DNA of 64,000 bases from Candidatus Harrisonbacteria bacterium CG10_big_fil_rev_8_21_14_0_10_40_38 (GCA_002773535.1 PFAZ01000001.1:89273-153272), one strand, 5' to 3'; positions 6,976 to 57,530 are shown, counted from the stretch's first letter. Numbers and translations: made by a program. Notes: generated by a model from the sequence alone, not told the origin.

Positions 6976-8514
6976 TTATTTAGTTTTTCTAAGAACCATT
7001 CCAGATCTGCCACTTCCAACGAGATCCCCTTTGGACACCTCAACCCTTCCATTTACCAAAACATGTCTTATCTCGCTATCCTTAAAAACTGCAATATCAG
7101 CGAAATAGGTCGGCTTAAGAACACCACGATTATCTATTCCCAAAAGTGAAGCAGGTGTATAGGTTATTTTTTTAATAGCATCCTCGATCGGAACAAGTTT
7201 CATATTTGCAACAATTTCCAAAAAATAAGGAAAAGTCCTCGAGAGCCTGTCGTGTTCCAAAAACCCGTGATCAGTAACACTCGGAGAATTTGATACAATT
7301 ATCGATTGAGAATGTCTCAATCGATGAATTGCAAAATCAATATTAATATCCCTATACAATACAACAGCTTTCATTTTCGTTTCTTTCATCAAGAAAACCA
7401 GAGCCTCTGCGCAAGAAACCCCGTGATTTTTTGCTATCTCACCCAATTTTTTATGAACTAAATATGGAGCGCTCGGAGCATAAGCCACAATAAGACTTCC
7501 GCCATCAAGATATGGAAAGTTTTCTACTAGTTCGTCCTTTATATGGGGTGAAGAAATAGCCGAAAGCATATCTTCCAGTTTTCCTGTCTGTGCAGACAAA
7601 GGCAAAAGACGATAAATAGGGTAAAGACTGAACGGAAACGGATATAAATCAAAATAAATTGGTAAAGTCGCTCCAGCCCCCTCAATAAGCGATATCCCCG
7701 CTTCATATTCCTGTTCAAATCCCAAAATAGGGCGGAAGTGACTTATTAGAGTTCGCGCACCGGTATCTCTAGTGATCTGGATAGTTTCTTTTACAGATTC
7801 CTCTAACTCATTTGTTTCACTTCGGAGATGTGTTGTATAAAGCCCATTATTCTTTGCAGTTACAGCCACAAGTTCTTTTAATTCTCCATACGGAGTCATT
7901 TTTGCGTGAGAGTAACCAAGTCCCGTAGAAAAACCAAACGCGCCCTGAGACATAGCGCGCGAAAGAATATTCTTAAATGAATCAATCTCTTCACGCGTAA
8001 GATCACGCTGCTCACCTCTTGTGATAGCCCTCCTAACTGTAGAGTGACCGACAAGAGTGGCAAAATTCACTCCAATTCCATTAACTTGCAAAACATCAAA
8101 AAACTCGCCAACTGTATGCCAGTTAACATTCACTATTTGAGAACTCATCCACTTTCTCATTGAGATGAGAGATCCGTCTATAAGTGGTGCAAGCGAACCC
8201 CCACACATCCCACCAACAATAGTCGTAACACCTTGTTTCAAAAAACTGCTCTGCGAAGAGTCAGAAAAAATCGTGCCATAATGATCAGAATCGTTATTAA
8301 TATCTATAAATCCGGGCGCAACATATGCACCCATTGCATCAATTACCGTGTGCGCTGATTTTGTAGAAAAAGATCCAATCGCAGATATTCGGTCACGCTT
8401 TATAAGGACATCGGCACGATATGGTGGAACACCGGTTCCATCAACAATTAATCCGTTCTTTATAAGTACCATAAAAAGGGCAAAAAAACTAAACGCCACT
8501 ATGTATTGTAGCAT
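6976..8514 (-). CDS. amidohydrolase-superfamily protein (N-acyl-D-amino-acid deacylase-like)
   Basis: N-terminal LIKNGLIVDGTG...ADVLIKRDRI and metal-binding amidohydrolase pattern; 512 aa. Confidence 0.55.
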   Translation of the reverse strand: MLQYIVAFSFFALFMVLIKNGLIVDGTGVPPYRADVLIKRDRISAIGSFSTKSAHTVIDAMGAYVAPGFIDINNDSDHYGTIFSDSSQSSFLKQGVTTIVGGMCGGSLAPLIDGSLISMRKWMSSQIVNVNWHTVGEFFDVLQVNGIGVNFATLVGHSTVRRAITRGEQRDLTREEIDSFKNILSRAMSQGAFGFSTGLGYSHAKMTPYGELKELVAVTAKNNGLYTTHLRSETNELEESVKETIQITRDTGARTLISHFRPILGFEQEYEAGISLIEGAGATLPIYFDLYPFPFSLYPIYRLLPLSAQTGKLEDMLSAISSPHIKDELVENFPYLDGGSLIVAYAPSAPYLVHKKLGEIAKNHGVSCAEALVFLMKETKMKAVVLYRDINIDFAIHRLRHSQSIIVSNSPSVTDHGFLEHDRLSRTFPYFLEIVANMKLVPIEDAIKKITYTPASLLGIDNRGVLKPTYFADIAVFKDSEIRHVLVNGRVEVSKGDLVGSGRSGMVLRKTK

Positions 8515-12056: not shown

Positions 12057-13547
12057 TTAAGGCAATGGTAATAGTGAATTCCTCTGATAAATATTTGAAG
12101 GGCTCCACAACATCCAACCGGTTACAGGCGCGCACGGATACAGGTCGTCAACAGTAATCGGTGGCATTGATGTTGATTCCGGTTTTGGAAATTGCGTTGC
12201 GCAAGTAGCAGCATCTCTCCCCGCATCATAAGTCGCCTGCATTTGTTTCCTTATCGTTTCAGGTGTGTATATCGCTCCCAAGTCAAAGCTTTGCAACCAT
12301 GGCCTTAACGTCGCCAAGCGAACTTTTGGTTTCGGCTCTTCGGTCGGTGTCGGGGTTGGTGTTGGAGTCGGAGATGTTGAGCTTGATGGAGACGGAGTCG
12401 GTTCCATGAATTCATCAGGAGTAGGAGTTGGAGAAAGTGTTGGTGTCGGAGTTTGAATTGGGGTAGGAGTTGGCGGCGCGAGCGCTATATATAATTTCCT
12501 AATTCTCTCAACAGCGCCGGAAATAGATTCATACACAACTTCATAAGGATGATCCGCTGGGTTTTTAAAACCTCTAAATCCTGACTGATAATGTGACGGA
12601 TAAACCATGGGAGCAATGTAATCAAAATACGGAAGAGCCGCTTCAAGATACTGCCCTATCCCCAAGTCGTCATAAGCCACAGTAACCAGACCAAACAAAT
12701 CCGCAGAAATGATATCGCTAGAAAGTGTTTTTCTAAGGTATGCAAAAAAAGATTCGATTGTTTTCTTTCTTGCGGTTTTCTGATCCCAAAATGGATATGT
12801 CGCATCAGCGAGATCTCCATCAGAAATAAATCGAATATAATCAAAATTCACTTCATCGATTCCTCTGTCAAAAACCTCTTTGGCAATAGACGCATTATAG
12901 GCCCACGCATCCTCCGAGGCAGGGTCAATCCATGAAAGGCCTTTTCTATCTTTCCATACCCCTCCGGTAGAGAGGCTCTTTATTGCCAAATCAGGCCTCG
13001 CAAGAGAGAGTCTCGGATCCTGAAAAACCGAAAGTCTTCCTATTACATATATACCCTCGTCATGAAACTGTTTTATCAAGCTATTTAAATGAGGTATTCG
13101 CACATCAACTGCGTGATATTTTATTGGCGCCTCAAGTTCAGTGTTGTATAAAACATAACCGGAGTAATCCTTTATATCGATAACAATTGCATTAAGTTCG
13201 GTTTTTTTAATAAGGTCAATAAAATATTGCACCTTTTGCTGATTTCCAGCTGACCATCCGGTCGCATATATAGCCTTTATTATTTTTGGCGGGTCAGAAA
13301 GTTTCTGTTGTGGTTCTATATCGGGTCCGCCCCTACTCCCTAAAACCTGCTCGGCAGGTGATGGGCTTGGACTAGGCGTTGGAGTTGGAGACACCGTTAC
13401 TTCAGGAGATTTTTTAGGCGTTTTTGATGGTATTACATTTTCCGTAGGAAAAACCTCGGTCGTATGTGCCGGAACGTTTGCGTTCGCCAAAAAAAACCCG
13501 CCCAAAACGATTAATGGAAAAAACACAAATACAAAAACCGAACGCAT
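12057..13547 (-). CDS. secreted glycoside-hydrolase-like TIM-barrel protein (DUF4015/GHL-type) with Pro/Thr/Ser-rich linkers
   Basis: Signal peptide; two PTPTPSPSP low-complexity linkers flanking a central domain resembling putative glycosyl-hydrolase-like families. Confidence 0.5.
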
Positions 13548-37635: not shown

Positions 37636-38403
37636 CTACAAAACAAAAATCAAAAACAAAATCGCAACCAAAATGCGATAAACTCCAAACGCCTTAAAGT
37701 CGTGTATCCGCACAAATTTTAAAAGAAATCTTACCGAAATAAGCGCGAATACAAACGAAACCACAAACCCGACCCCAAGCATCAAAAACTCATTAAAACT
37801 AAAATCAAACCCGCTCTTCAGTAAATCAAATCCCGTCGCCGCCGCCATAGTGGGTACCGCAAGGAGAAACGAAAACAAAACCGCCGCCTCACGTGAAAGC
37901 CCTAAAAACCTCGCGCCTATTATTGTAGCGGCGGATCGTGAAACCCCTGGCACTATAGCGAGCGATTGAATAACCCCAATCAAAACCGCGTTTGGATATT
38001 TCAGTTTTTCAATCTCCTCGCCTACTTCTTTTTTCTTCAAAATATTTTCAAGAAATATTAAAACCACTCCACCAATCAAAAGCGCAAAAACAACTACATA
38101 AGCACTGCCCAATAAAAATCCTTTTACAAAAGGATATAAAATAAACCCAATAATAGCAGTCGGCAAAAATGCGAGCGCAATTCTCACAATCGTTTTTTTA
38201 TCCTGAAAAAGATATTTTGGAAACAAAACCACAACTGCGAGGATGGCTCCAAGCTGTATCGCTATTTCAAATGAACTCAAAAACTCGCTTGAGGGAATCG
38301 TCAAAAGTTTTGAAGCAAGTATCAGGTGTCCCGTAGAAGATATCGGCAAAAATTCCGTAAACCCTTCGATAATCGCCAAAACAATCGTATAAAAAATATT
38401 CAT
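37636..38403 (-). CDS. uppP: undecaprenyl-diphosphate phosphatase
   Basis: EGFTEFLPISSTGH BacA signature, polytopic membrane protein. Confidence 0.85.
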   Translation of the reverse strand: MNIFYTIVLAIIEGFTEFLPISSTGHLILASKLLTIPSSEFLSSFEIAIQLGAILAVVVLFPKYLFQDKKTIVRIALAFLPTAIIGFILYPFVKGFLLGSAYVVVFALLIGGVVLIFLENILKKKEVGEEIEKLKYPNAVLIGVIQSLAIVPGVSRSAATIIGARFLGLSREAAVLFSFLLAVPTMAAATGFDLLKSGFDFSFNEFLMLGVGFVVSFVFALISVRFLLKFVRIHDFKAFGVYRILVAILFLIFVL

Positions 38404-44254: not shown

Positions 44255-46435
44255 TTACGGACTCCAAGCACAATCATAAGTAGTATATGTATCATCTTCA
44301 GGGGTCGCAGTATTATTGTCGCACTTAAACGTACATGTATCATTTTGCGTACATACAAGTTCATCATCTGCTCCACATCCATCAACAATCTTGCAGTCAG
44401 CAGTAATCGCAGCAAGGCATTTACAAGGCTTTGGAGTTGGAGAAGAATCGGGTCGTCGCCACCCCTCTATGTCATCATCAGGTCCAACCGGTGGAAGATC
44501 CCCATCGAGATCAATCGCCCAAGAACAACCGGGGATATTAACATCTGGTTGATGACCCCTAGTCTCACTCACGCACGCATCATATCCATCACCAAATCTT
44601 TTCCAACTATCTGGCACGGAAAAATCGCATACCTCATGTTCTCTCGTGCTTCCGGTTTTTAAATCAATCTGCTTATTACCACAGTTGCTGGTTGAGAAAC
44701 AGAAATTATCAAACCTCGCATCACCGCTAAAATTCGCATTATAGTAACAATGATTTACAGAATCGGAATGCGGATATTCATATGCGAACCCGCAAGTACT
44801 TCCCACGGGTGGAGGATCATCACGATAAACAACATCTACGCATCCGTTTGCCGGATCATGATTATCGAGACAAGAAAGATACGTCCCGCCCTCCTCACTA
44901 AACTTATTTTGAAAACTCCCTCCGGATAAAGGTATGTCATTAAAACCTTGCCAGAAAAAAAGTTCACACTTCTCATCCAGCCTTACAGGATATTTCGTAA
45001 CATCTCTTTCAAGTTGAGCATCACCACACCTGTCTCCAGGGTTCGATCCACCTTCTGGTGGGCTTACAAAAAAGCCAGGTAAACCCAAAAATTGAGGGAA
45101 ATCCCAAGCAGCATAAGCTTTTAATCTACACGCTTGTTCTCTTACAAGCGTAGGAAAAGGCGAGGGATAAAGTGGATAACTCGGATAAAGCATGTTATTT
45201 ACATCAAGTCCGTGAGTATATAGAGAAAAATCTTTCCAATGCTGCAGACCTAAGCCATGAGATATTTCATGAGCTAAAATCGTGCTTCTTCCTATCAGAT
45301 ATTGATCCTCATCATCAATATAGCCACCTTCGGGTGGATAAAAAACAAAATTATGAACACCTGAATTTTCATCAACCAAGCGCGCGCTATCATATTCCAA
45401 GGCATCAAAAGAAATTATGCCAACATTTTTAAGCGGAAAATAATATCCATAAATCGAAAAATCTCCACGAGAATTAAGAATGTCATCAACAACAAAAAAT
45501 GGCACTGATGGATAAAGGTCAAAACCAGATCTAATCAACGAAGCATCCGGTATAAACGGCTGAGTAACTCCGACTCCATGATATCTACTCGAGTCATTAG
45601 CATACATTACTGGTCCAAAGCCGGTATCAAACGACTGTATTGGTGGTATAGGCCCCATGTCCACTAGTCGTATATTTGTAATCTCAACATCAATTGGCCT
45701 TTGGTTAAATCCATACGGCTCAAGAGACCTCCTAAAAATTTCGGTCACACGTTCAACAACACTCTGCATTTTCGAAACTTTTTCTCGAAACGTATACTCT
45801 CCCAAATCAGGTGTTCCATAGTACGGAAACAAAAGTGAAATAGGTATAGTGATTCTAGTTCGTGAGTCGGAAGTAAGATCAAATTCTTTCTCAGAAAAAC
45901 CATTCATTTTCGACACGTCCTTAACGAGCGAAAACAAATCTCGCGGTTCCGTGTACACAAACCGCTCAGGATATTGAGAAGGATCTTTTTCGCCAGTAGC
46001 GGTAAAATTTGTAGAAGCCCTGCAATACCCACTCGATGTCTGAAGAGTCGTAGAAATTGTGTGTTTCCCTATCGGCCAACCGATATTCGACAATTTTGAA
46101 AAATTAACAGACGAGAAAAGATCATCTACCAGCTCTTCAAACGGATAGAATGTCCCATCAATAGAAATATTTACTATTTTTGAGATAAGTGGGTTTGATC
46201 CAGATCGAGAAATTGCCGAAACAGAAAACTCGCCAACAACATCTGTGTCTTGATTAATTTCCGCGCCAGAATGTGGCGAAGAAAATATGCATTTTACAGG
46301 AGGTGATATTTGAGCAAGTAATGTCAAAGAATCAGGTGCATTAAATCCAAAACCGTTAAAAAAAACAAAAACACTGGACAACAAAAACAAAATCCCTACA
46401 AAAACATATCCGACGCCAAGTGCCCGATTTCTCAT
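44255..46435 (-). CDS. secreted metzincin-type zinc metalloprotease with Cys/Asp-rich C-terminal region
   Basis: Signal/TM N-terminus; HEISHGLGLQH (HExxHxxGxxH); C-terminal ~200 aa rich in C and D. Confidence 0.55.
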   Translation of the reverse strand: MRNRALGVGYVFVGILFLLSSVFVFFNGFGFNAPDSLTLLAQISPPVKCIFSSPHSGAEINQDTDVVGEFSVSAISRSGSNPLISKIVNISIDGTFYPFEELVDDLFSSVNFSKLSNIGWPIGKHTISTTLQTSSGYCRASTNFTATGEKDPSQYPERFVYTEPRDLFSLVKDVSKMNGFSEKEFDLTSDSRTRITIPISLLFPYYGTPDLGEYTFREKVSKMQSVVERVTEIFRRSLEPYGFNQRPIDVEITNIRLVDMGPIPPIQSFDTGFGPVMYANDSSRYHGVGVTQPFIPDASLIRSGFDLYPSVPFFVVDDILNSRGDFSIYGYYFPLKNVGIISFDALEYDSARLVDENSGVHNFVFYPPEGGYIDDEDQYLIGRSTILAHEISHGLGLQHWKDFSLYTHGLDVNNMLYPSYPLYPSPFPTLVREQACRLKAYAAWDFPQFLGLPGFFVSPPEGGSNPGDRCGDAQLERDVTKYPVRLDEKCELFFWQGFNDIPLSGGSFQNKFSEEGGTYLSCLDNHDPANGCVDVVYRDDPPPVGSTCGFAYEYPHSDSVNHCYYNANFSGDARFDNFCFSTSNCGNKQIDLKTGSTREHEVCDFSVPDSWKRFGDGYDACVSETRGHQPDVNIPGCSWAIDLDGDLPPVGPDDDIEGWRRPDSSPTPKPCKCLAAITADCKIVDGCGADDELVCTQNDTCTFKCDNNTATPEDDTYTTYDCAWSP

Positions 46436-47818: not shown

Positions 47819-49285
47819 CTAAAACGCTACAGGCCAGACCACCCTCGCATCACCCTGCTTATCAATGATGAAAAGGCTATCCACTCCGCTACCGACACGC
47901 TGTTCGGGAAATTCTACCCTGCCGTCTTCATTTGTCACACCATCGACAACAAAAATCTCCTCTTGAGCCCCAGGACGTACGACATACATCCGAAGCTGGA
48001 GGTTTTCGATCGACGGATGCGACTGCACAGCGACGGAATAAAACGAGTCTTTTTGATCGATTTCCAGTTCAAGCCCGTCGATCCCCGAAGCAGGAATTCC
48101 AAATATCGGCAGATATCCTCGAATATATGCGTTTTCGATGTCACCGCCGACAAAATCTCTCACCGCGCGAACTCCCTGCGCTATTCCATATCCATCACTG
48201 GAAAAAGATCCGTACAACTCACCACTCCTATCGGAGAGCAAAAAGTGGTTACATGTCTTATCCTTCAGACTCGACACGAAATCACGCATTTCATCCCACA
48301 CAGTCCAAAATTCCTGCGAACCTTTTGTAGCCTGACCGATAGGCAGAGACAATGAAAGCACTTCGCTTGCCCATGCGAGAGAAAGCGCGCTCATCATATA
48401 TCCGCCAATCCAGGCAGAATTAAGTACACCACCGGGCGTGTCCCGCACGTATTCACGAACAGTGTCCATCATAAACATCGTCGCGCTGTACACAACGAAA
48501 TAAGAATCAATGACATATTCCTGAAAAGGGTTGTGGCCCAAATTGGAATAAAATGCATCAAGTCCTTCAATTGTAGGCGGGTCTCTGCCCAGTACCAATG
48601 CTAATGAATCGTTCATTGCAAGAAACGCACGATCCACTTGAGTGAGATTGAAACTCCAAAAACTTGGAGACCAACCATTGTACCTCCCAAACCGAGTCGG
48701 TGAACCAGACATCGCCGCAATGATCACACCATCCAAGTACTGAGCTATCTGAACACCCTCAGCCAATCGGACAAGAGTGTTTTCCGAATGGAGATCGCGA
48801 TCAGTCGCGATTTCCAACTGGCTCGTATCCGAAAGTGCTTCGAGTGCTGCAAGCTGCAAACCGGTCACTGCGGCAAACGACGGAAATCCATCCCCCCACT
48901 CATTGATCGTTTCGCCTTCAGTTATACGAAGCGTCATCCGTTCAGAAAGACTTTCTCTGTCACCGTCATGTCGAACAACTCTAAGAAAAGCATCTCCAGG
49001 AAGAAACCCGTAGTCCAGAGTCAATCTACCCAAAGGTGCGATTGCCTCCAGTCGATCACGCCGGGAGTCCACTCTCGTGGGCACCCGCACCGAGATGTCG
49101 CCGAAGTCGTACTCAACTTCGTATTCTCGGTTCGGATCGAGGTTCTCAACCTTGATCTGAATCAGAGAGAAAGGCCCTGCCTCTCCTGTAATGAGTTGTG
49201 ACTTCAGAGTAGCTTCAGGAGAGCTTGATCTCCCGCTCTTGCATCCAGAAGTCAAAACAACCAAAAATATCAAGAAAAATCTCAC
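47819..49285 (-). CDS. lipoprotein, hypothetical, GC-rich
   Basis: Lipobox LTSGC; GC visibly ~50% against a ~38% background; terminator after stop at 47772-47800. Confidence 0.5.
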   Translation of the reverse strand: MRFFLIFLVVLTSGCKSGRSSSPEATLKSQLITGEAGPFSLIQIKVENLDPNREYEVEYDFGDISVRVPTRVDSRRDRLEAIAPLGRLTLDYGFLPGDAFLRVVRHDGDRESLSERMTLRITEGETINEWGDGFPSFAAVTGLQLAALEALSDTSQLEIATDRDLHSENTLVRLAEGVQIAQYLDGVIIAAMSGSPTRFGRYNGWSPSFWSFNLTQVDRAFLAMNDSLALVLGRDPPTIEGLDAFYSNLGHNPFQEYVIDSYFVVYSATMFMMDTVREYVRDTPGGVLNSAWIGGYMMSALSLAWASEVLSLSLPIGQATKGSQEFWTVWDEMRDFVSSLKDKTCNHFLLSDRSGELYGSFSSDGYGIAQGVRAVRDFVGGDIENAYIRGYLPIFGIPASGIDGLELEIDQKDSFYSVAVQSHPSIENLQLRMYVVRPGAQEEIFVVDGVTNEDGRVEFPEQRVGSGVDSLFIIDKQGDARVVWPVAF

Positions 49286-49473: not shown

Positions 49474-52023
49474 ATGAAAAAAACTAATAATTTATTCACA
49501 AAATTAGCTGCTATATCCCTCGCGATAGGGGTATTGGGAAGCGCTATCCCAGTAGTAGCAATCGGCCTTCCGGAGGTTCAAACCTTGCCAGCAACAGGCA
49601 TTACTTCAGATAGCGCAACACTAAACGGTCACGTACATCAAACAAGAGCCAGCGACCTCTTGGTTTGGTTTGAATATGGCGAAACAGAATCACTTGGGAA
49701 ATCAATTGGCGACAAAACAGTTAACTGGCCCGATTCCGAAGACGCCAACTGGAGCGCATTAATTTGGAATCTAAAACCAAACACAACCTACTATTTCAGA
49801 GCAGTTGCTCAAAACGACCTTGGAACTAGCAGAGGAAGCTTAATGTGGTTTACGACTGGTGCGGGATCTCCCCCATCAGGTGATAAGCCAAATGTAAATA
49901 CAAAATCAGCAACCAATATTACAACTTCAGCCGCAACACTTAACGGTGAAGCAAAACCAAACGGCTCATACACAGACGGTTGGTTCGAATGGGGTACAAC
50001 TTCAAACCTTGGAAATACAACAAATAGTCAATCGCTCGGAAATGGTTCATCTTTCGTTCCCTTTTCATTCAGATTAAATAATCTTCAAAGCAATAAAACA
50101 TATTACTTCCGCGCCGTAGCAAGAAATTCCCATAGCACATCTCATGGAACAACTTTCGAGTTTAATACAAATAACGATGGCGGAGGTAGTTCAAGAACAC
50201 CAACCGTAGAAACTCTTTCTGCGGATAACATCACCGGACACGAAGCAAGACTAAATGCCGACGTAAATCCAAACGGTAGCAGAACTTATGTTTGGTTCGA
50301 ATGGGGTGAAGTCGCAAAAAACAACCACTCACAGGAAAGAGATATCGGAAGTGGCACAAGTTTCGAACGTGTTTCTGAAACAATCACAGGTCTTAAAGCA
50401 AATACAAATTACAACTTCCGCGCAGTTGCAAGAAACAGCAACGGAACAACTTACGGCAATACAAAATATTTCACAACAAACAATGACGGGAATATCGACA
50501 AGCCAACAGTCAGAACAAATCCTGCAACAGATATATCAAGCTATTCAGCCCGCCTTCAGGGAACAGTAAATCCTAACGGAAATCAGACAAACGTTTGGTT
50601 CGAATATGGAAAAACCAGTTCATTCGGAAGATCAACCGGATATCAATCAGTAGGCTCTGGTAGATATGACATCGATGTTTCCTCATATGTTTCTGACTTG
50701 GAAATAAACACAGTTTATTATTTCAGAGTTGTCGCTTCAAACAGCTACGGAACAAGTTATGGTCAAACACGAACATTTGTCACAAATCAGGACGGAGGAG
50801 AAAGTTATCGCGCTCCAACTGTCTACACAACAAATGCAACTGGCGTAACCAGAGATTCAGCCATACTTAACGGATCCGTAAATCCAAACGGAGCCACTAC
50901 AAGAGCATGGTTTGAATGGGGTTATACAGCTTCACTCGGCAACAGAACTTCTTACCAGAATATTGGTGGAGGTACTAGTTCATTTACCGTAAGCGCGCCA
51001 ATATATAATCTCTCCGACAATACAACTTATTATTTCAGAGTTGTTGCAGATAATAACTACGGAACAAGCTATGGAAGTATTTATAGTTTTACAACCGGAA
51101 CTGGATCAAATTCCTTAGCTCCATATGTAACAACGCTTTCACCATATAGCGTCCTTACAAATATCGCAGGAGTAAAAGCGAACATTAATCCAAACGGCTC
51201 TTACACAGACGGTTGGTTCGAATGGGGTACAACGCAGTCTCTCGGTCAGAGAACAACAAGAGTTTCTGTTGGAAGTGGAAATTCATATACAGAATTAACC
51301 TCTGTACTGTTAAATCTCTCCCCTAATACCACATATTACTTCCGAGGTGTTGCACAAAATTCATACGGCACAGGATATGGCGCAATTATTTCCTTCACAA
51401 CACAAGGCGGAGGTACAACTCCTCCCCCATCAGGTGGTGGAACGGGAAGCGGTATCATTGGCCCAACACTTACACTCACATCATCTCTCGATAAGAGCGA
51501 AGTAAAAGTTGGAGAAGAGTTGATCTATAAACTCATGCTCAAAAATACAAGCTCAACTCACTCTCTTCGAAATGTAAAAGGAACGATTAAAGTACCGGAA
51601 ATTGTAAGCTTCCTTTCAGCAAACGCAATGATGATGATAGAAAATCCTGAAGAAATATCATTTAACATCGACAGATTAACTCCACTCGGGGAAAACGAAA
51701 TCCAGATAAAATTCAGAGTAAACGAAAAATCCAAAAACAATGACGATTTAACAATCCAAACCGAGATCAAATATTCAGACGCGCTCGGAAGAAGTTATAA
51801 TGTCAGCACATTTGCTACAGCAAAGGTGCACGGAGGTATCGGCCTACTCGCATCAATCAGCGATCTTTTCACTGGAGCAAGTATTTCCCTCGGATGGTTC
51901 CTAGTAATCCTCTTGTTACTCATCATCCTCGGGATAGCATACAGCCAGTGGAATAGACGCAAACTTGAATCAATTCTCTATCAAAACCCCCCGCCTCCTC
52001 CTCCACCTATTCGTGAAGCATAA
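49474..52023 (+). CDS. cell-surface protein: signal peptide, ~8 fibronectin-III-like repeats, DUF11/CARDB-like domain, C-terminal TM anchor and poly-Pro tail
   Basis: Recurring NPNG...WFEWG...YYFRAVA.N..G.S.G motif (FN3-like Y.FR.VA.N signature) about every 100 aa; TM WFLVILLLLIILGI; ends PPPPPPPIREA. Confidence 0.7.
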   Translation: MKKTNNLFTKLAAISLAIGVLGSAIPVVAIGLPEVQTLPATGITSDSATLNGHVHQTRASDLLVWFEYGETESLGKSIGDKTVNWPDSEDANWSALIWNLKPNTTYYFRAVAQNDLGTSRGSLMWFTTGAGSPPSGDKPNVNTKSATNITTSAATLNGEAKPNGSYTDGWFEWGTTSNLGNTTNSQSLGNGSSFVPFSFRLNNLQSNKTYYFRAVARNSHSTSHGTTFEFNTNNDGGGSSRTPTVETLSADNITGHEARLNADVNPNGSRTYVWFEWGEVAKNNHSQERDIGSGTSFERVSETITGLKANTNYNFRAVARNSNGTTYGNTKYFTTNNDGNIDKPTVRTNPATDISSYSARLQGTVNPNGNQTNVWFEYGKTSSFGRSTGYQSVGSGRYDIDVSSYVSDLEINTVYYFRVVASNSYGTSYGQTRTFVTNQDGGESYRAPTVYTTNATGVTRDSAILNGSVNPNGATTRAWFEWGYTASLGNRTSYQNIGGGTSSFTVSAPIYNLSDNTTYYFRVVADNNYGTSYGSIYSFTTGTGSNSLAPYVTTLSPYSVLTNIAGVKANINPNGSYTDGWFEWGTTQSLGQRTTRVSVGSGNSYTELTSVLLNLSPNTTYYFRGVAQNSYGTGYGAIISFTTQGGGTTPPPSGGGTGSGIIGPTLTLTSSLDKSEVKVGEELIYKLMLKNTSSTHSLRNVKGTIKVPEIVSFLSANAMMMIENPEEISFNIDRLTPLGENEIQIKFRVNEKSKNNDDLTIQTEIKYSDALGRSYNVSTFATAKVHGGIGLLASISDLFTGASISLGWFLVILLLLIILGIAYSQWNRRKLESILYQNPPPPPPPIREA

Positions 52024-53898: not shown

Positions 53899-55107
53899 AT
53901 GAACAAAAAATCAACTGCAATTTTTATATCATTGTCGATTTTGATTTTACTTGGTCTTGCGGGAGGTTTGTTTTGGGAAAAAATAAAAGGTCTCGTTCCC
54001 GCCATACTTCCAAGTCCAGAAGATATTACAAAACTTGAAACCCTTCCCTTAAATATTCCTAATAGATTTCAAATTTCTATTTTTGCAAAAAATCTCAATG
54101 AACCACGAGATATATATATAAACCAAAATATTCTTCCAAACACGATCCTCGTAAGTGACACAAAGGATGGAAAAATTATCGCTCTTAAAGACACAAATAA
54201 AGATAACGTAGCAGATGAAAAAATCTTTATCCTTGAAAATTTAAAGAGTCCCCACGGCATCGAAATACAATGTAACAATGAGAAAAACTGCCTGCTTTAC
54301 ATTGCCGAAAGCGGAAAACTGACAGAGTACACATTCGACCCAAATTCTTTGAAAGCAATCTTTAAAAGACAGCTTGCAGAATTACCCGATAGTGGCATTC
54401 ATTTCACGCGATCACTTCTATTTTTACCGACACCAAATAATAACCGCTTACTGGTTTCAGTCGGCTCCTCATGTAACGTTTGTAATGAAAAAGACGACAG
54501 GCACGCAAAAATTCTAGTAATAAACGTAAACAATAAAACCCCAAAACTTGAACCTTATGTAACAGGTCTTAGAAACAGTGTTTTTATGATTACTGACAGC
54601 AAAACCAAAAAAGTCTATGCAACCGAAATGGGACGCGACCTTCTAGGCGACATTACGCCACCAGATGAAATAAATATAATTACCGAATCAAAAAACTATG
54701 GCTGGCCAACATGCTATGGAAAAAACATACACGATACAGAGTTTGATAAAAACACTTACATTAGAAACCCATGCATGGAACCATTTGAAACCGAAAGCTT
54801 TATAGACATTCCGGCCCACTCTGCGCCCCTAGGCTTGGAATTCACCCCAAAAAACTGGCCAAAAGAATATGAGGGACTACTTGTTTCCTATCACGGCTCA
54901 TGGAATAGATCTGTTCCAACTGGCTATAAAATCGTTCTTTTTGATATAAACAACCCAAATAAACCATCAATCGATATAGTAGGCGGTTGGCTAAAAGACA
55001 ATGGAGCTATCGGCAGGCCAGTGGATATTGAAAAATATGATGATAACTCCGTACTTGTATCAGATGATAAATCGGGCGTAATCTACAAACTGACATATGG
55101 AAAATAA
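53899..55107 (+). CDS. PQQ-dependent soluble sugar dehydrogenase-like beta-propeller (YliI/SGDH family)
   Basis: NYGWPTCYG motif and propeller-like repeat organisation; N-terminal anchor. Confidence 0.55.
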   Translation: MNKKSTAIFISLSILILLGLAGGLFWEKIKGLVPAILPSPEDITKLETLPLNIPNRFQISIFAKNLNEPRDIYINQNILPNTILVSDTKDGKIIALKDTNKDNVADEKIFILENLKSPHGIEIQCNNEKNCLLYIAESGKLTEYTFDPNSLKAIFKRQLAELPDSGIHFTRSLLFLPTPNNNRLLVSVGSSCNVCNEKDDRHAKILVINVNNKTPKLEPYVTGLRNSVFMITDSKTKKVYATEMGRDLLGDITPPDEINIITESKNYGWPTCYGKNIHDTEFDKNTYIRNPCMEPFETESFIDIPAHSAPLGLEFTPKNWPKEYEGLLVSYHGSWNRSVPTGYKIVLFDINNPNKPSIDIVGGWLKDNGAIGRPVDIEKYDDNSVLVSDDKSGVIYKLTYGK

Positions 55108-55813
55108 CCCGAAAACAACAATTGTTATCTGCACATATAACGAATCAAAAAATATCGTCCCTCTCATAGAAGAAATCGAAAAGCTTAATGTCGTAAATCA
55201 CGATTATGTGATTATAGACGACAATTCACCTGACAAGACAGGAGAAATTATAGAAAACCTGAAAACCAAATACCCAATCACCCCAATACACCGCAAGAGC
55301 AAACTCGGCCTCGGTTCCGCATACATCGAAAGTTTTAAAAAAATTATCGAAAAAAATGAAGCAAACTATATAGTCCAGCTCGATGCTGACTGGTCACATG
55401 ACCCAAATACCATTCCCAAACTTATCGAAAAAATGACGGACTTTGATCTGGCTCTCGGATCCAGATATATTCCGGAAGGAAAAATAGAAAACTGGAATTT
55501 TATTCGCCGCACAATCAGCTCGTTTGCAAACTGGGGCGTAAGAAAAGTTTTAAAAGTTCCATACCACGACTTAACAGGAGGTTTCAAATGTTACAAAAAA
55601 GAGGTTTTAAAAAAGATCGATTTAAACTCCATAAGCTCTACCGGATACAATTTTCAAATCGAAACCACATACCTTGCTCATTTGGCAGGATTTAAAATAT
55701 GCGAAATCCCTATCACATTTACAGAACGCCGCGATGGAGAATCAAAATTTAATATTGGAATAATGCTTGAAAGTTTTATCAAAGTTCTAAAGCTAAGGAA
55801 AAAGCATGAGTAA
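55097..55813 (+). CDS. family-2 glycosyltransferase, polyprenol-phosphate mannose/glucose synthase-like (DPM1/ArnC type)
   Basis: VICTYNE...DYVIIDDNSPD...QLDADWSHDP DxD-containing GT-A fold. Confidence 0.7.
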   Translation: MENNPKTTIVICTYNESKNIVPLIEEIEKLNVVNHDYVIIDDNSPDKTGEIIENLKTKYPITPIHRKSKLGLGSAYIESFKKIIEKNEANYIVQLDADWSHDPNTIPKLIEKMTDFDLALGSRYIPEGKIENWNFIRRTISSFANWGVRKVLKVPYHDLTGGFKCYKKEVLKKIDLNSISSTGYNFQIETTYLAHLAGFKICEIPITFTERRDGESKFNIGIMLESFIKVLKLRKKHE

Positions 55814-57530
55814 AAAATTTCATAAATACGCACTAATCAGCATTCTTGTAGTTTCAGCAATACTTCGAATATGGAACTTAGGACTCGGTGATCCAATAAA
55901 CGACGAAGTTCTCATTGCTTTTAGAGCTCTGGGCCTTATTGATTTTGATGCGGCAGAATTTCAAACAACTCCTTTCGAATGGTTCGATATAGCAAACGGA
56001 ACCATATCTCACTCTGGAATCCCATCTTGGGCAAAATTTTCTTTTCATGACCACCCACCATTTGCCTTCTGGATTCAACACATATTCCTAACAATTTTCG
56101 GTACGGCTGTATGGGCCTTCAGGCTCCCTTCAGCGCTATTTGGTATTGCATCGGTATACTTACTTTATAAATTAGGAAAGTCTCTTTTCAACAAAAACAT
56201 AGGCCTTCTATCAGCCCTTTTTATAGGTATTACAGTAAACCATGTTCACATGTCTAGGGTTGGCATGCAGGAAGCATATGTCATATTTTTTATCATCCTC
56301 ACAGCTTATCTCTATACGCTTTCCATAAATAAAAACCCAAAGTGGTTTATTGCCGCAGGTATTTCAATGGGATTCGCATTTCTTACGAAATATACAGCTT
56401 TCCTTCTTATTCCGTGGCTTATTATCCATCTTGCGATCTCGAAGCCAAGACTTTTTAAAAACAAAAATCTCTGGATAGGAATTCTTTTATCAATCACTGT
56501 TTTTTCGCCGGTGATTTTGTACAATCTCGCTCTCTACAACGCTACAGGGCACTTTGATTTCCAGTTTTCATATCTTTTTGGACAGCATCCGGAAGTTTGG
56601 CAAAAAGCGCCGGGAAAAGAAATTGGCTCTGTTGGCAATCGTTTTTCCAATTTCTTTGCGTGGATAAAAGACATCAATTCCCTCCCCTATCTCATCTTAG
56701 GTTTTTTGAGTTTTCTCTGGATTGGTTTTGAATGTGTAAAAAAAAATAAACGCGCCCCCAAAGAAAAACTTTTTATCCTTTTAGGCGCCCTGATAACATT
56801 TCTATATATTATTTTTATCACCGGCCCCGCATATAGATTCCTATCAATGCTAACCCCATTCTTCGCCATATTTATCGCGCTCGGAATAGAAAAACTACAA
56901 ACGCTGATAAAAAAAGAGTTTCTATTTAAAGGCATTTTGGGAATTTTTATTGCATTTGAATTATTAAACACAGCAAACAGCCAACTACTCGCCTACCCAA
57001 AAGAATCAAACATACTTTTTACAACTAAAATCCGTGACGATAAATACAGTTGGGGCTATAACGAACTCGAAACTTTTCTAAAAACCGAACTACAGGAAAC
57101 CTACCCCGCAGTGATCTTTAATAAAAAATATGCATTTTTGGAAAACTTGCAGAAAATCGGTGTAACTAGAGCAAAAGTAAAAAACTATAAATCCTACCCC
57201 GCTCTCTTCATATACGACCACGACATTTTTAATTTTGCCCAACTTTGGAGCTATGACAGAAGATTTATGTATGAAGGCTGGCCGTTCATTCCCACAGAAG
57301 AGTATTACAAACTCCTCGAACAATACGGACAGGATTATCTTAAAAAATCAGGATTTCATAATTATTATTTTATTATTCCAACAAAAGCGCTCGAACTTCG
57401 ACGCATGACCCCGATTACAACGCTCGGCCCCGCCCTCGAGGACGAACTTATCTCACAAGGAAAAGAACCAATAGAAATAAAAGATCCTAAGGGAGATACG
57501 GTTTTTCATGTGTATAAATGGTCTGATTAG
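55806..57530 (+). CDS. PMT/ArnT-family (GT39/GT83-like) membrane glycosyltransferase using polyprenol-phosphate sugar donors
   Basis: Polytopic N-terminal domain with first-loop DE motif (DPINDEV), large C-terminal soluble part; overlaps the GT2 gene by 8 nt. Confidence 0.65.
   Translation: MSKKFHKYALISILVVSAILRIWNLGLGDPINDEVLIAFRALGLIDFDAAEFQTTPFEWFDIANGTISHSGIPSWAKFSFHDHPPFAFWIQHIFLTIFGTAVWAFRLPSALFGIASVYLLYKLGKSLFNKNIGLLSALFIGITVNHVHMSRVGMQEAYVIFFIILTAYLYTLSINKNPKWFIAAGISMGFAFLTKYTAFLLIPWLIIHLAISKPRLFKNKNLWIGILLSITVFSPVILYNLALYNATGHFDFQFSYLFGQHPEVWQKAPGKEIGSVGNRFSNFFAWIKDINSLPYLILGFLSFLWIGFECVKKNKRAPKEKLFILLGALITFLYIIFITGPAYRFLSMLTPFFAIFIALGIEKLQTLIKKEFLFKGILGIFIAFELLNTANSQLLAYPKESNILFTTKIRDDKYSWGYNELETFLKTELQETYPAVIFNKKYAFLENLQKIGVTRAKVKNYKSYPALFIYDHDIFNFAQLWSYDRRFMYEGWPFIPTEEYYKLLEQYGQDYLKKSGFHNYYFIIPTKALELRRMTPITTLGPALEDELISQGKEPIEIKDPKGDTVFHVYKWSD

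Follow-up and report, generated by a model that had tools for sequence, protein, structure and literature searches.

Introduction

To which acceptor a tiny groundwater bacterium of the Candidate Phyla Radiation (CPR) might pass a lipid-linked sugar is the question raised by two overlapping glycosyltransferase genes of Candidatus Harrisonbacteria bacterium CG10_big_fil_rev_8_21_14_0_10_40_38. The genes lie in a 64,000-nucleotide stretch of its metagenome-assembled genome (MAG), GCA_002773535.1 PFAZ01000001.1:89273-153272, which we analyzed as a whole and refer to as the window. The upstream gene (55097-55813, + strand) encodes a 238-aa glycosyltransferase of family GT2 and GT-A fold, a DPM1/Ppm1-type polyprenyl-phosphate hexose synthase, and the downstream gene (55806-57530, + strand) encodes a 574-aa membrane glycosyltransferase of GT-C fold that belongs to the PMT_2 clan. 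CPR/Patescibacteria envelopes are poorly understood, their structure and formation having been called unclear (PMC5220378), and glycosylation in these bacteria has been described as unexplored (PMC11623550). Here, we report that the pair very probably constitutes a generic two-step lipid-linked sugar pathway. A protein acceptor is our favored reading, and we put it, together with the full explanation that includes it, slightly short of an even chance; a glycopolymer of the wall or membrane ranks only just behind.

Results

The GT2 and GT-C genes form a coupled module

A first-pass annotation, made from the sequence alone, had described an overlapping GT2 gene and 574-codon GT-C gene. Both open reading frames (ORFs) were confirmed at these positions on the plus strand, and Pfam agreed with the proposed families, with Glycos_transf_2 (PF00535) matching the 238-aa ORF at 2.6e-25 and PMT_2 and PMT matching the 574-aa ORF at 5.7e-33 and 2.6e-16, respectively. 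The two ORFs overlap by 8 nt (ATGAGTAA), and a Shine-Dalgarno-like AAGGA precedes the GT-C start codon; translational coupling of the module is supported. Scans for promoters, terminators, and Rfam families gave no informative signal around the pair, and together with the tRNA scan they yielded a single tRNA-Gln. Both exact proteins had already been recorded from a Candidatus Harrisonbacteria MAG. The source is thus a CPR/Parcubacteria MAG (window GC content about 40%) and neither an actinobacterium nor a classical Gram-positive, a correction to the first-pass annotation, which had drawn on Actinobacteria and described the envelope as Gram-positive-like.

The GT2 protein resembles DPM1/Ppm1-type mannose synthases

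The best solved relative of the GT2 protein was the dolichyl-phosphate mannose synthase (DPMS) of Pyrococcus furiosus (PfDPMS; 5mlz), which aligned over aa 5-232 at 1e-36, as compared with 1.4e-7 (to 3e-5) for ArnC and 4.5e-4 for the GtrB-like sll0501. We mapped the residues seen in the PfDPMS crystal complexes (PMC5526996) onto GT2 through the 5mlz alignment, and determined their conservation in 37 sequences (36 orthologs from Parcubacteria plus GT2 itself). Ten of the 13 key PfDPMS residues (E12, D39, D89, D91, H94, R117, R131, S135, R202, and K208) were kept in GT2 and invariant in this set, while Q93, F177, and K178 were replaced by Ser, Tyr, and Asn, respectively. In PfDPMS, D39 contacts the guanine, D89 and D91 form the DXD motif, R117, R131, and S135 bind the acceptor phosphate, and R202 and K208 belong to the A-loop; the DXD metal site, the Arg117/Arg131/Ser135 triad, and the A-loop Arg202/Lys208 are described as features that bona fide DPMSs retain (PMC5526996). 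The GT2 equivalents are D96/D98 for the DXD motif, R123, R137, and S141 for the phosphate triad, and R211 and K217 for the A-loop, all invariant across the 37 sequences.

GT2 consists of a catalytic domain and interface helices, with no transmembrane (TM) domain. Since the protein ends after the interface helices, it has neither the TM domain of type III DPMSs nor the TM hairpin of ArnC and GtrB. Human DPM1 and the catalytic domain of mycobacterial Ppm1 have this same TM-less form. Together, these comparisons make GT2 a well-supported candidate for a DPM1/Ppm1-type polyprenyl-phosphate mannose synthase, of DPMS rather than ArnC type. NCBI names the exact protein a dolichyl-phosphate beta-D-mannosyltransferase and its homologs polyprenol monophosphomannose synthases. 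The best NCBIfam match was archaeal AglJ (1.5e-17), followed by a haloarchaeal dolichyl-phosphate hexose transferase, with all scores far below the cutoffs and no NCBIfam equivalog cutoff reached by GT2. As no such cutoff was reached and the names come from databases only, mannose, most likely donated by GDP-mannose, stands as the best inference for the sugar. The window also encodes the undecaprenyl-diphosphatase UppP/BacA (37636-38403, - strand; Pfam BacA, 9.6e-70), by which the cell recycles undecaprenyl phosphate, the likely lipid acceptor of GT2.

The GT-C transferase combines a GT-C_A core with its own C-terminal domain

An AlphaFold2 (AF2) model of the GT-C protein built on 36 homologs had a pLDDT of 90.8 and a pTM of 0.92. 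Searching this model against the Protein Data Bank (PDB) with Foldseek returned AglB (4e-10), ArnT (9e-9), STT3 (about 1e-7), and Pmt4 (1.7e-6), along with PglB, ALG9/12, Pmt1/2, and Emb; all of these are GT-C_A enzymes, and the predicted structure leaves no doubt that the fold is GT-C_A. Structure prediction had been put forward as a means to tell GT39 from GT83. It delivered a confident fold, but the GT-C_A enzymes scored so similarly that GT39, GT83, and GT66 are not separable by structure. In sequence searches, ArnT was the sole PDB match for the single protein (E 1e-3) and the best match for the family profile. PMT_2 was found in 36/36 family members and PMT in 35/36, and there was a weak match to NCBIfam Agl23, far below its cutoff. 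The secondary structure of the AF2 model, together with hydropathy and the positive-inside rule, is consistent with 11 TM helices in an N-in/C-out topology, each of the five cytoplasmic loops containing basic residues as that rule expects.

The core is followed by an alpha/beta domain of 180 aa that is predicted to be extracytoplasmic (aa 394-574; 56985-57527, + strand), which was modelled alone with a pLDDT of 80.5. A profile of this domain retrieved only 341 clusters from 1.84 billion representative proteins; full-length hits were mostly 540-620 aa long and the shorter ones resembled fragments, so by profile search the domain is confined to this family of GT-C proteins. It probably helps to hold the acceptor, making it a candidate acceptor-recognition module. 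We also considered its fold as a clue to the acceptor, but Foldseek gave no significant PDB match (best E 0.013, TM-score < 0.37).

The conserved GT-C residues resemble those of PMT enzymes

Residue conservation was counted in the 36 GT-C family members. In the first extracytoplasmic loop, the Asp33-Glu34 'DE' motif (55902-55907, + strand), a hallmark of catalysis in GT-C enzymes, is invariant at both positions and corresponds, by motif and by its position right after TM1, to D77/E78 of ScPmt1, D113/E114 of Streptomyces coelicolor Pmt (ScoPmt), and D55/E56 of ArnT, whose mutual equivalence has been described (PMC8698208, PMC7801869). The same loop carries the motif His81-Asp82-His83-Pro84-Pro85 (56046-56060, + strand), with H81, D82, and P84 invariant and H83 present in at least 90% of members. 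HMMER aligned this HDHPP motif to 'FEKPP' of ArnT, placing His83 at the position of ArnT K85 and ScoPmt H159; H159 is the reported equivalent of K85, and the H159K substitution inactivates ScoPmt (PMC8698208).

Further invariant residues are R106, E156, K195, and R344. R106 corresponds to ScoPmt R182 and ScPmt1 R138, E156 (in S-R-x-G-x-Q-E) to ScoPmt D233 (in S-R-Y-I-L-L-D), and K195 to ScoPmt K302 and ArnT K203, while R344, in the TM9-TM10 loop, is matched to ScoPmt R510 by topology only. In S. coelicolor Pmt, D113, H159, D233, K302, and R510 are essential, whereas E114A and R182A mutants still complement (PMC8698208). Judged by these alignments, the catalytic core of the GT-C protein is PMT/TMTC-like rather than ArnT-like.

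By the tests run, the GT-C protein represents a Parcubacteria-restricted PMT_2-clan clade with its own C-terminal domain, outside both GT39 and GT83. It is not assigned to GT39 because the score against the Pmt equivalog falls far short of the cutoff and PMT_4TMC, the C-terminal four-TM module of Pmt enzymes, is absent, nor to GT83 because neither the Lys85 of ArnT nor an ArnC-type partner is present.

The module recurs in distant Parcubacteria

Full-length GT-C homologs with 35-48% identity were found in CPR MAGs, including those of Harrison-, Sung-, Niyogi-, Giovannoni-, Ryan-, Taylor-, Nomura-, Buchanan-, and Doudnabacteria and other Patescibacteria. Many GT-C-bearing MAG records have the title 'uncultured Candidatus Saccharibacteria', 'Gammaproteobacteria', or 'Micrarchaeota archaeon', probably taxonomic mislabels that arose in automated submission (among them loci L006, L013, L014, L017-L019, L023, L025, L056, L078, and L080). 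Several genomes carry two GT-C paralogs, sometimes in the same locus (L038/L041 from one assembly, L014/L049 from another, L069, L074, and L007), and so the family may serve more than one acceptor or donor.

We then clustered the neighboring genes over 82 non-redundant loci, where only some of the clusters were annotated. A GT2 gene lies less than 3 kb upstream of the GT-C gene and on the same strand in 38/82 loci, while other neighbors differ. It directly adjoins or overlaps the GT-C gene in 19 of these, and the recurrence of the module in distant Parcubacteria bears out the initial proposal of a canonical pair, a polyprenyl-phosphate sugar synthase coupled to a GT-C enzyme. In the remaining 19/38 loci, a divergent DUF2079 membrane protein (465-508 aa; PF09852, 8.4e-80) is encoded between the two (L007, L013, L015, L019, L024, L025, L035-L037, L039, L050, L051, L054, L055, L057, L059, L062, L070, and L076). 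The DUF2079 gene also stands beside GT-C with no visible GT2 in 6 more loci (L016, L033, L043, L046, L060, and L063), and thus adjoins GT-C in 25 loci altogether. We take DUF2079 to be a GT-C-like multi-spanning membrane protein. Its placement between GT2 and GT-C suggests several transfers from a single lipid-linked donor, one that feeds two membrane transferases, GT-C and DUF2079. DUF2079 appears to be uncharacterized, as our literature search returned no paper pairing it with 'glycosyltransferase'; a search linking Parcubacteria and mannosyltransferases likewise gave nothing relevant.

A class I S-adenosylmethionine (SAM) methyltransferase is encoded directly upstream of GT-C in 7 loci (L011, L020, L027, L052, L058, L064, and L065). 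This 257-aa protein (Methyltransf_11, 8e-19) occurs within 6 kb of GT-C in 18 loci, often with no adjacent GT2, and sugar methylation is one possibility for its role. About 9 loci have, beside GT-C, a gene for a secreted Ser/Thr/Gly-rich protein of 1000-1250 aa with no Pfam match (L069 3557-7297, L082 5434-9066, L081 111-3173, L072 85-3411, L007 29-3337, L059 12903-16538, L076 12971-16717, and L077 11678-12286), followed by a 235-aa TPR membrane protein and often accompanied by GT4 clusters and a second GT-C paralog. In several of the Ser/Thr/Gly-rich proteins we recognized a signal peptide and a coiled coil, along with a Cys-flanked region similar to peptidoglycan-binding domains. They could be S-layer-like glycoproteins, each with its own glycosylation locus. 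No homologs of the DUF2079, Ser/Thr-rich, TPR, SAM methyltransferase, or GT4 neighbors were found in the window.

Candidate protein acceptors in the window

The window encodes a secreted putative glycosyl hydrolase of the DUF4015 family (12057-13547, - strand; DUF4015, 9.8e-86) with a signal-like N-terminus and Pro-Thr/Pro-Ser (PT/PS) tracts around aa 40-65 and 357-402. The first-pass annotation had rightly recognized this secreted, glycosyl hydrolase-like protein with PT linkers. It alone among the proteins of the window has PT tracts, and we regard it as a candidate acceptor, though an unproven one. A second protein, of 849 aa (49474-52023, + strand), shows Fn3-type Pfam matches and has a signal at its N-terminus and a TM anchor at its C-terminus. 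It had been described as a surface protein with eight FN3 repeats; the protein is real and of surface type, but it has six clear repeats, of ~104 aa, ending in 'YYFR/YNFR'. It is rich in Thr, Ser, and Asn and has no PT tract, and we regard it as a weak acceptor candidate. Most of its repeats contain N-x-T/S sites, e.g. 'NTTYYFR' and 'NGSYTDGWFEWG', and the TM anchor that follows the repeats leads into a cytoplasmic poly-Pro tail (PPPPPPPP). Surface proteins of Ig/FN3 type occur near the GT2/GT-C pair in several loci. A neighbor of ~540 aa lies near GT2 in the closely related loci L050, L062, and L070; it is an Ig-domain surface protein in L062, the sole one scanned.

A proposed two-step pathway and its acceptor

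We propose that GT2, as a soluble or peripheral enzyme at the cytoplasmic face, would load a hexose onto a polyprenyl phosphate. The likeliest sugar is mannose from GDP-mannose and the likeliest carrier undecaprenyl phosphate, so that polyprenyl-phosphate-mannose would be formed. A flippase would then turn the lipid-linked sugar outward, and the 11-TM GT-C enzyme would act as an inverting transferase that passes this one sugar to an acceptor bound close to loop 1, using Asp33/Glu34 together with His83, Arg106, Glu156, Lys195, and Arg344. Ser/Thr hydroxyls of secreted or surface proteins would be the favored acceptor, because the catalytic core is PMT/TMTC-like and not ArnT-like. We also counted toward a protein acceptor the PT-linker DUF4015 hydrolase of the window, the Ser/Thr/Gly-rich secreted proteins encoded next to GT-C in about 9 loci, the Ig/FN3-type surface proteins near the pair in several loci, and the precedent of a Firmicute GT39 enzyme, in Caldicellulosiruptor bescii, that glycosylates Thr/Pro linkers of secreted hydrolases (PMC6151902). 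The recurrent neighbor clusters, only some of which were annotated, offered no conspicuous flippase-like family; the flippase could be encoded elsewhere in the genome. On a more speculative version of this proposal, to which we give a real but low probability, the proteins are a CPR-specific protein O-mannosyltransferase family whose C-terminal domain selects surface or S-layer-like proteins or pilins, and which together with DUF2079 builds short O-mannosyl glycans.

Several results weigh against a protein acceptor, against mannose, or against the completeness of this scheme. The family profile, while remote from both, is marginally nearer to ArnT (2.5e-6) than to Pmt1 (5e-3). The protein scores 25.7 bits against the NCBIfam Pmt equivalog NF058602 PrMnsylTfPmt, whose cutoff is 800, and does so over aa 69-172 only, and PMT_4TMC was detected in 0/36 family members. 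In the window and 1.34 Mb of related loci combined, PT tracts were present in 6/1248 ORFs, and a homolog of the DUF4015 protein was found in one other locus only, 5 kb from GT-C and not syntenic with the pair. We therefore rejected synteny with PT-linker substrates as evidence on the acceptor. O-glycosylation of PT-rich linkers, as originally envisaged, is plausible in itself but is weakened by the same PT-tract count, the subthreshold Pmt score, and the missing PMT_4TMC; the analogy with Actinobacteria on which it drew serves as a lead, not as a result. As for the sugar, against mannose stand the Ser and Asn that replace Gln93 and Lys178 of PfDPMS, and DPM1-like folds can carry other sugars, as in GacI with GlcNAc (N-acetylglucosamine). 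The window scans turned up no gene of the GDP-mannose pathway, and the small multi-TM ORFs that the window encodes gave no GtrA match.

The same chemistry could serve a cell-wall or membrane glycopolymer or glycolipid, such as a teichoic-acid-like polymer, a secondary cell wall polysaccharide (SCWP), or a lipomannan-like lipoglycan, and we consider this quite possible, if at less than even chances; the fallback of 'protein or wall-polymer' in the first-pass annotation is upheld. One line of support for a glycopolymer is also a further point against a protein acceptor, in that the PMT_2 GT-Cs GtlB, GttB, GtcC, CsdD/F, and GtsC of Firmicutes modify lipoteichoic acid (LTA), wall teichoic acid (WTA), rhamnan, and SCWP, and not proteins (PMC8035078). 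The same is true of the frequent company of DUF2079 and GT4 clusters with GT-C, a pattern that fits glycan assembly: DUF2079 adjoins GT-C in 25 loci and lies between GT2 and GT-C in 19, suggesting several transfers, and GT4 clusters and second GT-C paralogs flank GT-C in L007, L033, L069, L074, L081, and L082. The rarity of PT tracts in GT-C loci points the same way. On the other hand, the donor synthase is of DPM1/Ppm1 type, unlike the GtrB/CsbB type with TM helices that Firmicutes use, the GT-C core has the PMT-type His, and no teichoic-acid or polysaccharide genes were found near the pair in the window scans. Moreover, a wall glycopolymer is undescribed for Parcubacteria, whose envelope has been called unclear (PMC5220378).

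Two further readings carry less weight than a Ser/Thr or glycopolymer acceptor. The GT-C enzyme could cap a glycan already bound to protein instead of starting on peptide, in the manner of archaeal AglS, which adds a terminal sugar from dolichyl-phosphate-mannose (Dol-P-Man) made by AglD. This would agree with AglJ as the best NCBIfam match of GT2 (1.5e-17), with the weak match of GT-C to Agl23, with AglB at the top of the fold search, with the GT4 clusters and large surface proteins that adjoin GT-C in some loci, and with the many N-x-S/T sites of the FN3-like window protein. However, the NCBIfam scores are all far below their cutoffs and the window showed neither an STT3/PglB oligosaccharyltransferase gene nor one of PglL type, and we hold capping to be improbable. 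Modification of lipid A or another lipid in the manner of ArnT/ArnC, with resistance to cationic peptides, is more doubtful still. ArnT is the only PDB sequence match (E 1e-3) and the best profile match (2.5e-6), and, like GT-C, it carries a soluble domain C-terminal to its TM core, but a fold search with the C-terminal domain did not return ArnT, 11 TM helices are predicted instead of 13, and the equivalent of Lys85 is His83 in at least 90% of the family. The partner GT2 is likewise of DPMS type (1e-36, versus 1e-7 for ArnC) and lacks the TM helices of ArnC. Pfam scans of about 58 window ORFs, from which we drew the gene content of the window, revealed no arn or lpx genes and no other lipid A or lipopolysaccharide (LPS) genes, in agreement with what had first been noted for this stretch, and a curated Parcubacteria genome has been reported to be free of lipid A/LPS genes (PMC5220378). 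Because of the DPMS-type GT2, the His at the Lys85 position, and this absence of LPS genes from the window and from the curated genome, a lipid A target is very unlikely, to the point of being negligible, as the first-pass annotation had also judged it the less plausible one.

Other features of the window

A 402-aa membrane-anchored, GSDH-like beta-propeller protein is encoded immediately upstream of the pair (53899-55107, + strand; Pfam GSDH, 2.2e-11), and the end of its ORF shares 11 nt with the beginning of GT2. We considered this gene as a component of the system but rejected it, as it adjoins the pair only in the closest relative (L006) and is otherwise found within about 10 kb of it in L008 and L040; it probably lies outside the glycosylation system.

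The peptidoglycan genes recognized by Pfam in the window are FemAB, an M23 peptidase, MurG, FtsW, MraY, a D-Ala-D-Ala carboxypeptidase, and UppP/BacA. Within the MraY-FtsW-MurG cluster, a 512-aa protein (6976-8514, - strand) with only a weak C-terminal amidohydrolase match is encoded between MraY and FtsW, a slot normally filled by MurD. An amidohydrolase-like gene likewise stands beside FtsW and MurG in a distant Parcubacteria locus (L004, 10625-10956). Two minus-strand ORFs, of 726 aa (44255-46435) and 488 aa (47819-49285), have hydrophobic N-termini and no Pfam match, the latter with a lipoprotein-like 'LTSGC' motif. The GC content of the window is highest at 48-50 kb (0.458 versus about 0.40).

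Discussion

The type of pathway proposed here is a textbook one, and the names given to both genes in public databases already reflect it, so that no new principle is involved unless the acceptor proves unusual. The GT-C clade is nonetheless widespread in Parcubacteria, is often accompanied by a Ppm1-like synthase, and has a unique outward domain, making it a tractable entry to surface decoration in these bacteria. The identity of the acceptor bears on the recognition of hosts by episymbionts and on phage receptors. If a CPR-specific protein O-mannosyltransferase family were indeed at work, no earlier protein-glycosylation pathway would have been defined in the CPR, and this one would be possibly relevant to the host attachment of episymbiotic ultrasmall bacteria.

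Among known systems, actinobacterial Ppm1 and Pmt (GT39; Rv2051c/Rv1002c in Mycobacterium tuberculosis, and the S. coelicolor enzymes) offer the same combination of a soluble DPM1-type synthase and a GT-C enzyme. The GT-C protein has, like Pmt, the DE motif, the His-Pro-Pro motif, an Arg that follows loop 1, an acidic residue, a Lys, and an Arg in loops 3, 5, and 9, respectively, and a predicted 11-TM, N-in topology. Unlike Pmt, it reaches 25.7 bits against a cutoff of 800, has no PMT_4TMC, and bears an extra 180-aa C-terminal domain of unmatched fold. In Actinobacteria, ppm1 and pmt are unlinked, whereas the genes form an overlapping operon here.

A non-actinobacterial GT-C of similar size, likened by its description, is the 556-aa GT39 protein Cbes_1864 of the Firmicute Caldicellulosiruptor bescii, which is required for glycosylating the Thr/Pro linkers of secreted glycoside hydrolases (PMC6151902). 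By analogy, this case matches the scenario that the first-pass annotation had drawn up for the DUF4015 protein. However, Cbes_1864 is encoded beside its own substrate genes, while the gene for the PT-linker DUF4015 protein is 42 kb away from the pair.

Other Firmicute systems (CsbB/GtcA/YfhO, GtlA/GtlB, YkcC/YkcB, and CsdC/CsdD) follow the same logic of a GT-A synthase, a flip across the membrane, and an outer GT-C, and many of their GT-Cs have a PMT_2 domain and are encoded in adjacent GT-A/GT-C gene pairs (PMC8035078). As in these multi-component systems, synthase and GT-C are encoded together here. The Firmicute GT-As are nevertheless of GtrB/CsbB type, with C-terminal TM helices and UDP-sugars, whereas this GT2 is of DPMS type with no TM helices; their acceptors are teichoic acids or polysaccharides, and a GtrA-type flippase was not found in this window. 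ArnC/ArnT (GT83) shares with the pair the GT-C_A fold, the loop-1 Asp, the Lys (K195; ArnT K203), and a C-terminal soluble domain, but differs in the His that here replaces Lys85, in having 13 TM helices rather than the 11 predicted here, in the DPMS-like nature of this GT2, and in its lipid A substrate, of which there is no evident sign here.

The eukaryotic TMTC1-4 proteins have an 11-TM PMT-clan core, use a Dol-P-Man donor, and carry a lumenal non-catalytic C-terminal domain that is thought to engage protein substrates (PMC7801869). That domain is made of TPR repeats, unlike the compact alpha/beta domain found here, and homology of GT-C with TMTC1-4 was considered at the level of the clan only. 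The GT-C protein nevertheless shares with TMTC1-4 a His-containing loop-1 motif and the order of a core, here with 11 predicted TM helices, followed by an outward non-catalytic domain, and we counted this TMTC-like architecture in favor of a protein acceptor.

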